A stretch of DNA of 64,000 bases from Candidatus Zixiibacteriota bacterium (GTDB taxonomy: Bacteria > RBG-13-66-14 > B26-G2 > WVWN01). This document shows, one piece after another, positions 17,585 to 17,926 of this stretch. The position numbers and the translations under genes are program-made. Numbering within the stretch: position 1 is the stretch's first letter; each line of letters starts with the position of its first letter. The stretch lies in contig JASFLY010000003.1 of NCBI GenBank assembly GCA_050117845.1, positions 124,949 to 188,948 on the forward strand, given 5' to 3'. The notes beneath the pieces are model-generated. The model saw only the letters and a list, made by a program, of their open reading frames with translations. It had not been told where the DNA came from and did not search any database.

Positions 17585-17737
17585 CTAGCCGTCGTGCTCA
17601 CCATCGGGAGGTGGTGATTGTGGTGGCGGAATTATCGGCGGTTGTACGTCACTGGCCGCCGCGATACTAGGAGCTAATATCGATAACAGAAAAACTACGA
17701 TTATTGATGTAAGCGTTAATTTCCGTACTGCTCGCAT
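17585..17737 (-). CDS. small secreted Pro-rich peptide (50 aa)
   Basis: AAAGGAGG RBS 4 nt upstream of ATG; signal peptide MRAVRKLTLTSIIVVFLLSILAPSIAAAS followed by DVQPPIIPPPQSPPPDGEHDG; directly downstream of a sigma-54-type promoter. Confidence 0.5.
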   Translation of the reverse strand: MRAVRKLTLTSIIVVFLLSILAPSIAAASDVQPPIIPPPQSPPPDGEHDG

Positions 17738-17770
17738 AAATCCTCCTTTATCTTGACGATTACTACTATC

Positions 17771-17786
17771 GCAATTCCCGTGCCAA
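17771..17786 (-). promoter_or_regulatory. sigma-54 (RpoN) -24/-12 promoter candidate
   Basis: Minus strand reads TTGGCACGGGAATTGCG = TGGCAC-N5-TTGC with canonical GG/GC spacing; ~25 nt upstream of the small-peptide RBS; two sigma-54 activators are encoded in the window. Confidence 0.5.
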
Positions 17787-17926
17787 TCCGGTATCTCATT
17801 ACATATGAGGCACTTACGCATCAGCGCGGGTATAAGGGAGGACGCTTTTTTCCGTTAATATTGGAGGAATTTAAGCGAATTTAACATGAAAAGGCCAAAA
17901 TTGCTTTAAAAAACTGAATAAAAAAC

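Follow-up and report, generated by a model that had tools for sequence, protein, structure and literature searches.

Which genes does a strict sigma-54 promoter control when it lies between a large signalling regulator and a protein related to reverse transcriptases (RTs), and is that regulator its activator? The question is raised by a 64,000-nucleotide stretch of DNA from a Candidatus Zixiibacteriota bacterium (contig JASFLY010000003.1, positions 124,949 to 188,948; hereafter the window). A preliminary description of the window had proposed that a near-consensus sigma-54 promoter on the minus strand drives a small secreted proline-rich peptide, and that the neighbouring activator may switch on an operon consisting of the peptide gene and the RT-like gene. 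Our analysis suggests that the following picture as a whole is probably correct: the operon head is a genuine enhancer-dependent sigma-54 promoter, its first product is an exported peptide, and the operon comprises three genes, for the peptide, the RT-like protein and a gasdermin. With low confidence, the module may be regarded as a transcriptionally licensed, inducible cell-envelope or cell-death system. The presence of the gasdermin in the operon, the loss of RT motifs, the conserved hairpin behind the peptide gene and the non-canonical loop of the activator were not part of the preliminary description.

The comparison covers 12 distinct loci, namely, the window, L001, L009, L005, L010, L016, L017, L008, L012, L026, L021 and L024, which originate from uncultured bacteria, represented by metagenomes and metagenome-assembled genomes, including those of Zixibacteria, and a complete chromosome of Candidatus Coatesbacteria (CP070633.1). 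The RT-like proteins of these loci are 35-49% identical to that of the window. All 12 loci share the same order of elements: an activator gene with a palindromic terminator, a -24/-12 motif, AGGAGG, an open reading frame (ORF) of 46-51 aa, a GC-rich hairpin and the RT-like gene. Thus, every element named in the earlier proposal of an activator-switched operon is kept as part of one unit, which supports that proposal.

The sigma-54 promoter and its upstream sites

The minus strand of the window reads TGGCAC (17785-17780), GGGAA and TTGC (17774-17771), which constitutes an exact sigma-54 -24/-12 element with the right spacing. The element had been correctly identified, whereas its reported span, 17771-17786, included one extra T, the true span being 17771-17785. 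It also fits the extended consensus TGGCACG-N4-TTGCW everywhere except at the final position. The exact string TGGCAC-N5-TTGC occurs once on both strands of the 64-kb window, versus a mean of 0.04 in shuffled sequences. If one mismatch is allowed, there are six matches versus 1.73 expected; the five additional ones, at 4610, 5250, 10923, 21366 and 32095, were discounted because all of them are inside coding sequence. Two of the latter, the near-identical plus-strand strings TGGCACGTACAATGC and TGGCACGTCCAATGC (5250-5264 and 32095-32109), are located in PAS-array ORFs where they encode WHVQC, and represent a coding repeat rather than promoters.

The promoter is conserved in all related loci. 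TGGCAY-N5-TTGC is found exactly once per ~10-kb locus, just 5' of the orthologous peptide gene, in nine out of nine related loci with an upstream region; L024 and L026 also have this motif, and L021 has TGGCCC-N5-TTGC at the equivalent place. In the alignment of the 12 loci, TGGC and TTGC are invariant and the spacer is always N5, with TGGCAC being present in nine loci, TGGCAT in two and TGGCCC in one. The distance from the -24/-12 element to the start codon is 22-49 nt. In the window, the Shine-Dalgarno sequence AAAGGAGG (17742-17749, minus strand) is located 4 nt 5' of the ATG at 17737 that opens the 50-aa ORF, as had been read previously, and AGGAGG is unchanged in all 12 aligned loci. Transcription would start near 17759, the position predicted in the preliminary description. 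The promoter sits 194 nt past the stop codon of the activator gene (17979-22958), and the stop codon of the peptide gene is 95 nt upstream of the RT-like gene, in agreement with the placement described earlier.

It could be argued that the motif and the ORF are chance intergenic features, since there is a single match per window and at least one match was also obtained in four out of 100 shuffled sequences. However, 12 divergent loci have kept not only the motif with its spacing but also the ribosome-binding site, the reading frame, the peptide features and the palindromes further upstream, and these comparative data refute the explanation, leaving it a negligible probability. No RpoN box was found in the 64-kb window. 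The window also encodes a second, canonical activator of the response-regulator type (60607-61998, minus strand), which is NtrC/AtoC-like and has the loop GAFTDA; judging from this gene content, its presence suggests that the genome uses sigma-54 and makes a lack of rpoN unlikely.

Upstream of the promoter, dyad sites are found at fixed distances, which is the layout expected of an enhancer-dependent promoter. The perfect 16-bp palindrome CCGCCAATTTTGGCGG (17929-17944) is centred at about -177 from the predicted start and represents a putative enhancer (upstream activating sequence), whereas a degenerate second palindrome, minus-strand CCTCCAATATTAACGG (17852-17867), is centred at about -100 and is a putative second enhancer site. 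Each of the 12 loci has CCGCCAATTTTGGCGG, or a slightly altered version of it, centred at -173 to -179; a second copy is present at -96 to -100 in most of them (L001, L009, L016, L017, L021, L024), and a third copy is found at -194 to -198 in some. Sites of this type are rare elsewhere, both in the loci and in the window. CCGCCAATTTTGGCGG is at the same time the stem of the intrinsic terminator of the activator gene (17946-17927, with a T-run), as identified in a terminator scan. In the window (17929-17944), L005 (7523-7557) and L010 (7336-7370), the best copy of the palindrome is this stem, the sequence of which, unlike in ordinary terminators, is kept across the loci, suggesting that a single element may combine two roles, transcription stop and enhancer site. 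Autoregulation of the activator via the palindromes was considered and rejected, since there are no copies upstream of the activator gene.

The activator gene (minus strand) encodes a protein of 1659 aa and is located directly upstream in 12 out of 12 loci. Pfam domains identified in the protein include Pkinase (1.1e-37), AAA_16 of the STAND type with MalT-like TPR, GAF, Sigma54_activat (PF00158, E 6.8e-62), AAA_lid_14 and HTH_8, the C-terminal helix-turn-helix (HTH) being of the Fis type.

The predicted exported peptide and the hairpin behind it

The first ORF downstream of the promoter encodes a 50-aa pre-peptide, MRAVRKLTLTSIIVVFLLSILAPSIAAASDVQPPIIPPPQSPPPDGEHDG (17585-17737, minus strand; ATG at 17737, TAG at 17587-17585). 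The signal peptide was judged by eye, using the n/h/c and -3/-1 rules, in 11 aligned orthologues and L026. In the window it comprises residues 1-28, with a basic n-region and a hydrophobic region of 16 residues; Pro is found at -6 and the cleavage site is preceded by A-A-A, so that the predicted mature peptide has 22 aa, SDVQPPIIPPPQSPPPDGEHDG (17588-17653). The orthologous peptides of the 12 loci, 46-51 aa in length, have two or three K/R residues at the N-terminus (positions 2-6), followed by a hydrophobic stretch of 15-17 residues. Pro is present at -5/-6 in all but one (L024) of the 11 aligned orthologues, A/T-x-A precedes the cleavage site and Asp/Glu is found just after it (+2). The mature part contains PP[IVM][IY]PPP(P)x[ST]PPP or a similar stretch with four to seven prolines, such as DPPPPNYPP, TPPPPQYPP or PPPPPPP, and then a Gly-rich tail. 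Among the orthologues, pairwise pN/pS is 0.18-0.47 with pS of 0.30-0.76 (synonymous sites near saturation), indicating that the ORF is translated and under purifying selection. The predicted signal peptide and proline-rich tail of the 50-aa ORF, both noticed earlier, are conserved among the orthologues. A longer ORF of 78 aa, starting from the ATG at 17821, was rejected because it spans the promoter, lacks a ribosome-binding site and has an N-terminal extension that is not conserved.

The peptide family has no match in Pfam, NCBIfam or PADLOC, and a look-up of the exact peptide sequence returned no record. The conserved polyproline peptides, which are probably exported, constitute a new family of small proteins. 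Export by Sec and a cut by signal peptidase I would yield an acidic peptide of ~20 aa, roughly half of which is proline. Because this predicted product is acidic and not amphipathic, its role is more probably that of a ligand or signal than that of a lytic agent.

One possible receptor would be the activator itself. After export, the peptide could act as a signal, with the TPR/STAND part of the activator or the helical repeats of the RT-like protein as its sensor, resulting in positive feedback or cell-cell communication comparable to that of PlcR-PapR and AimR-AimP. Consistent with this possibility, the gene order resembles that of RRNPP pairs, with a TPR regulator followed by a gene for a small secreted peptide; the regulator would itself control the promoter of the peptide gene, and the peptide always accompanies the activator, irrespective of the gasdermin. 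Furthermore, polyproline helices are typical ligands of repeat domains. However, the loci lack a linked import system, the presumed receptor does not belong to the RRNPP family, and a search with the STAND/TPR middle region of the activator, directed at the wider activator family, gave two weak matches only and no useful relatives. We consider such sensing rather unlikely, although it is compatible with the core of the proposed operon.

Behind the peptide gene, a GC-rich stem-loop without a U-tract (17524-17573, core 17527-17569, minus strand) starts 12-17 nt past the stop codon. The 70 nt after the stop fold with -36.6 kcal/mol, which places them in the best 0.6% of 70-nt windows of a 16-kb stretch (10001-26000 of the window). 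A hairpin is present at the equivalent position, 12-24 nt past the stop, in 11 out of 11 loci tested, with its sequence differing between clades, and in seven of these loci its rank among the local 70-nt windows is about the top 5% or better. The stem is followed by a U-tract only in L008, L012 and L026, whereas both true terminators in the window have one. An Rfam scan gave no match in 14500-18100 or in the spacer of L024, except for a sub-threshold match on the operon terminator. Masking of the ribosome-binding site of the RT gene by the hairpin was rejected: the site is outside the conserved stem, and spacers reach up to 530 nt. Since the Shine-Dalgarno sequence of the RT gene is left unmasked and the RT genes of L021 and L024 begin 270-530 nt further downstream, the hairpin may be an intercistronic attenuator or mRNA stabiliser favouring the peptide cistron, and not a ribosome-controlled switch.

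The same observations bear on the possibility that the small ORF is mainly a cis-acting leader, in which polyproline stalling, relieved by EF-P or by Sec pulling as in SecM, VemP and MifM, controls the hairpin and the expression of the RT-like protein and gasdermin, with the peptide itself being functionless. The signal peptide, the prolines near the C-terminus and the hairpin just past the stop are all conserved, as would suit a leader, and monitoring substrates share the layout of an N-terminal signal and a C-terminal arrest region (PMC7897499). However, the last PPP is at least six codons before the stop and the hairpin is 12-24 nt beyond it, so that a ribosome paused on the prolines would be short of the stem. 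In addition to the unsequestered Shine-Dalgarno sequence and the distant RT genes of L021 and L024, the downstream genes are not Sec or YidC components, and conservation extends to residues other than proline (the AxA site, Asp/Glu at +2 and the Gly-rich tail). A leader with a functionless product is, in our view, unlikely, and an exported peptide is the preferred reading of the ORF.

The RT-like protein, the gasdermin and the regulator

The second gene of the operon encodes a protein of 575 aa (15762-17489, minus strand), which we assign to Class 1 UG/Abi RTs of the UG21 type with C-terminal helical repeats. PADLOC assigns it to RT_UG21 (E 5.8e-23), as it does P0007 (E 1.3e-49). Pfam has no match for the protein itself, and a profile of its family matches solved RTs in PDB. 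The AF2 model (pLDDT 75, pTM 0.78) is all helical beyond about residue 298, and its nearest structures according to Foldseek are DRT6, DRT4, Abi-P2 and AbiK, i.e. Class 1 UG/Abi RTs with C-terminal helical repeats. The label 'RT-like' used in the preliminary description was therefore correct. The C-terminal helical domain is better conserved than the RT part.

The differences from active RTs are found in the catalytic motifs. The wider family and the relatives fused to PAS/GAF domains have D[IV]xx[YF]FEN in motif A and RY[VM]DD in motif C. In clade C (L005-type), Asp of motif A is replaced by Glu and motif C is YVDD, and in clade B (L001-type), Asp of motif A is kept and motif C is Y[LF]RD; gasdermin is absent in both clades. 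In the motif alignment, the window protein, which is linked to a gasdermin, has IDVAPLRE in motif A and FRDK in motif C, and thus lacks the catalytic motif. L012 and L026, also with a gasdermin, retain Asp of motif A and have YGSE and YGHE, respectively, in motif C. Thus, DD of motif C is lost in all three readable gasdermin-linked loci. In the fourth one, L008, which is a Coatesbacteria-type metagenome contig, two overlapping ORFs of 224 and 411 aa take the place of an uninterrupted RT-like gene (7402-9236) and motif C was not read, whereas the L012 orthologue is intact; the split is either a frameshift or pseudogene, or else an assembly error. Since motif C is FRDK and not YxDD, the RT-like protein of the window is, judging by its motifs, very probably not a polymerase.

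The third gene (14775-15680, minus strand) encodes a bacterial gasdermin of 301 aa, recognized by the PADLOC profile bGSDM (2.8e-13). Residues 9-258 match PDB 7n51 with E 8e-4, the match to NCBIfam prok_gasdermin (1.4e-9, 38 bits) is below the cut-off of 100, and an identical database protein, P0016, assigned to a Candidatus Zixiibacteriota MAG, carries PF26164. The single-sequence AF2 model is unusable (pLDDT 33), and the family match rests on sequence. Gasdermins are present in four loci, namely, the window, L008, L012 and L026, always in the order peptide, RT, gasdermin. In these proteins, a core that is conserved to about residue 231 is followed by a variable linker, and F-x-x-EDF is conserved near the C-terminus, an arrangement that fits the known design with a presumptive pore domain, cleavable linker and inhibitory tail. 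The operon ends at a bidirectional intrinsic terminator with a 13-bp stem (14580-14609), found in the terminator scan, and no strong terminator was detected inside the operon before 14609-14580. An Rfam Acido-Lenti-1 match at 14585-14615 (22 bits versus a gathering score of 37) is most likely just this terminator hairpin. In clade C, the third gene (360-385 aa) was considered as a gasdermin analogue and rejected, because it is unrelated to gasdermin and absent in L017; its product looks by eye like a secreted beta-propeller, and its neighbour has NHL repeats. The eight gasdermin-free loci have no conserved third gene, suggesting that the conserved core of the module consists of the activator, the peptide and the RT-like protein.

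We propose the following mechanism. The activator would integrate signals via its kinase, STAND/TPR and GAF modules, bind with its HTH to the palindromes at about -177 and -100, and remodel the sigma-54 holoenzyme at 17785-17771, leading to a start near 17759. The 50-aa pre-peptide would be the first and best-translated product; following Sec export and cleavage after AAA by signal peptidase I, it would release an acidic peptide of 22 aa, about half proline. The U-tract-free hairpin might stabilise the peptide cistron or let only some transcripts pass, and because of this the peptide would be made in excess over the downstream proteins. The RT-like protein may function as a scaffold or sensor, and the gasdermin, which keeps the inhibitory C-terminal motif, as a membrane-pore effector.

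Several observations weigh against parts of this scheme. Eight of the 12 loci have no gasdermin or other obvious effector. Known bacterial gasdermins need an adjacent protease. No protease domain was found in the genes flanking the operon in scans of the window, L008 and L026, the flanks of L012 being covered as an ORF list only. The 70-nt window of the hairpin is unremarkable in four of 11 loci (best 13-23%), and cleavage of the signal peptide is a prediction from sequence rules. The chromosomal positions of the loci are stable, and viral contigs and plasmids yielded no relatives; on these grounds, an origin from mobile elements was rejected, and the module does not resemble a typical mobile defence island. 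The most serious objection concerns the L1 loop of the activator (window 18700-18760, residues about 1400-1420), which is GTATGV instead of the GAFTGA characteristic of bacterial enhancer-binding proteins, in every locus holding that part of the gene. GTATGV aligns residue for residue with GAFTDA of the second activator of the window (60607-61998), Phe being replaced by Ala, and the flanking ESELFGIEKGTATGVDKR is nearly fully conserved, apart from a single conservative change each in L009 and L008. Phe and Thr of GAFTGA touch region I of sigma-54, and their changes mostly abolish activation (PMC3162934, PMC3467059). Furthermore, homologues with defective loops, TyrR, DhaR and HupR, act with sigma-70 (PMC3162934, PMC7175178, PMC3467059). 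Direct activation by the 1659-aa protein is uncertain because of this non-canonical loop. The locus presents a natural Phe-to-Ala loop variant beside a textbook -24/-12 promoter.

Accounting for such a loop, another, canonical activator might fire the promoter, with the kinase-STAND protein being a repressor or co-regulator at the palindromes, or a sigma-70 regulator as TyrR, DhaR and HupR. This is what the GTATGV loop itself and the literature on GAFTGA substitutions and sigma-70-dependent homologues would suggest. However, the loop retains its length and Thr, and Walker A and B, the R-fingers and sensor II look intact by eye in the translation aligned to the canonical activator. The activator and the strict -24/-12 promoter occur together in 12 out of 12 loci with fixed spacing of the sites, and a promoter scan found no sigma-70-like promoter on the same strand between the activator and RT-like genes (17490-17980). 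We regard the involvement of another activator as quite unlikely. Given the preserved loop length and Thr, the ATPase motifs and the co-occurrence with the strict promoter, direct activation by the 1659-aa protein is still favoured as the probable mechanism, although it is the weakest link in the argument. The earlier view of this protein as the switch is accordingly upheld by the conserved promoter, palindromes and linkage, but the loop leaves its direct action presumptive.

The operon may also be part of a death switch operating at the level of the population or of envelope integrity. In such a scenario, the exported peptide, or its unexported precursor upon failure of Sec or the membrane potential, would be read by the TPR/STAND activator or the helical repeats of the dead RT, and the RT-like protein would then free the gasdermin without a protease. 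We regard this extension as improbable; if true, it would represent the first gasdermin pathway that is licensed by sigma-54 and needs no protease, as well as the first case of an RT fold being exapted to regulate a pore-forming protein in a non-polymerase role.

The RT-like family contains 15 proteins according to a word-indexed search and 57 representatives below 1e-30 in an exhaustive search. In the nearest longer relatives, P0017-P0021 (1177-3141 aa), the RT-plus-repeat unit is followed by arrays of PAS and GAF domains. In L021 and L024, PAS/GAF-fused RTs are encoded behind the same kind of activator, promoter and peptide; P0018 has a shorter GAF-type activator upstream, and L020 and L027 contain stand-alone relatives with intact motifs and without an activator or peptide. 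P0017 corresponds to a giant RT gene of the window (25168/25231-34656, plus strand; 3141-3162 aa), with a UG21-type RT and helical repeats. Its catalytic motifs, GDVTAYFENV and YFRYVDDICVF, are intact, and the RT and repeats are followed by about a dozen PAS domains and several GAF domains. The identity to the 575-aa RT-like protein is 35%. A WYL-HTH regulator gene (23837-24829, plus strand) is located just upstream of the giant RT gene, and exopolysaccharide genes follow on the opposite strand. In L021 and L024, a giant RT of the same kind directly follows the activator and peptide, a pair that points the other way in the window. A second promoter or peptide for the giant RT gene was sought between the WYL gene and the giant RT gene, and none was found. 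The divergent WYL regulator and activator genes are separated by about 880 bp (22959-23836) without a convincing ORF; a sigma-70-like promoter for the activator gene is located at 23063-23034, and an Rfam scan of 22900-25300 gave no match. On the other side of the module, a gene string is conserved in the window (9808-14501, plus strand) and L001 (8987-13153). Its members are two V4R-domain proteins, an aminotransferase class V, family-less proteins of 67 aa and 106 aa, a DUF4388/PatA_N protein and a small Ras/MglA-like GTPase.

Comparison with known systems

The closest parallels to the operon head are the PspF-pspA, NtrC-glnA and RtcR-rtcBA units. They have -24 GG/-12 GC with exact spacing, dyads about 100-180 bp upstream, and an activator with an AAA+ sigma-54 domain and Fis-type HTH, encoded beside its target. 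By contrast, in the units described here, a Ser/Thr kinase, STAND-TPR and GAF are combined in one chain of 1659 aa with the loop GTATGV, the strongest site is the terminator of the activator gene itself, and the cargo consists of a peptide, a pseudo-RT and a gasdermin.

Bacterial gasdermin-protease systems were reportedly described by Johnson et al. 2022 (structures 7n50-7n52). Like the gasdermins found here, they combine a pore-forming domain with a linker that varies and a short C-terminal segment that is conserved, which is consistent with autoinhibition. However, in our case there is no gene for a caspase-like, subtilisin, CHAT or trypsin protease in the flanks scanned (window, L008 and L026), the gasdermin is instead accompanied by an RT-like protein and an exported peptide, its expression is apparently gated by sigma-54, and the N-terminal Cys for palmitoylation is missing.

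The RT-like protein shares with Class 1 UG/Abi RTs (UG21; AbiK, Abi-P2, AbiA, DRT4/UG15, DRT6, DRT9) the fingers and palm followed by HEAT-like helical repeats. C-terminal helical repeats are carried by Class 1 UG/Abi RTs, and the defence role of UG21 was rated inconclusive (PMC9226505). Unlike in those enzymes, motif C is FRDK in the window and YGSE or YGHE in the other readable gasdermin-linked loci, and relatives are fused to PAS/GAF arrays.

Three kinds of systems with short ORFs resemble the peptide gene. SecM, VemP, MifM and ApdA/ApdP/ApcA are similarly encoded by short ORFs that open an operon; they carry an export signal and have proline in the C-terminal part, and a stem-loop is located downstream. 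The peptides described here contain the candidate stalling runs PPP and PPPP. The differences are that no Sec/YidC genes are found downstream, the next ribosome-binding site is unmasked and there is no RAPP-type motif at the C-terminus. The leader ORFs mgtL and mgtP of Salmonella, with proline codons, encode 17-18 aa without a signal peptide, and their alternative stem-loops overlap the ORF. They are likewise short proline-rich ORFs located before regulated genes with RNA stem-loops nearby, whereas in the present case the hairpin is beyond the reach of a paused ribosome. Finally, in RRNPP pairs (PlcR-PapR, NprR-NprX, AimR-AimP, Rap-Phr), a propeptide gene with a signal peptide is located directly downstream of, and controlled by, a TPR regulator. 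However, the regulator considered here is a kinase-STAND-GAF-AAA+ sigma-54 activator and not an HTH-TPR protein, the hosts are not Firmicutes, and the mature part is ~20 aa and proline-rich.

We found no description in the literature searched of a peptide, pseudo-RT and gasdermin combined under sigma-54. The operon brings together a protease-less gasdermin, apparently controlled at the level of transcription, a defence-type RT that has lost its catalytic residues in the readable gasdermin-linked loci while relatives with intact motifs are wired to long PAS/GAF arrays, and a kinase and STAND enhancer-binding protein with an odd sigma-54-contact loop beside a textbook -24/-12 promoter. The role of the exported polyproline peptide family is open to direct testing. 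If the proposed regulation is true, the operon would provide a natural test of how much of GAFTGA is needed, a case of gasdermin activation by a route other than proteolysis, and a defined inducible promoter-activator pair from uncultured phyla. Judged from the encoded motifs and gene neighbourhoods, three features that define the respective parent families, GAFTGA, YxDD and the adjacent protease, fail here. The individual parts are all of known kinds: the promoter and activator belong to sigma-54 systems, the RT-like protein to Class 1 UG/Abi RTs, the third gene product to bacterial gasdermins and the export signal to Sec signal peptides. What appears to be new is their combination.

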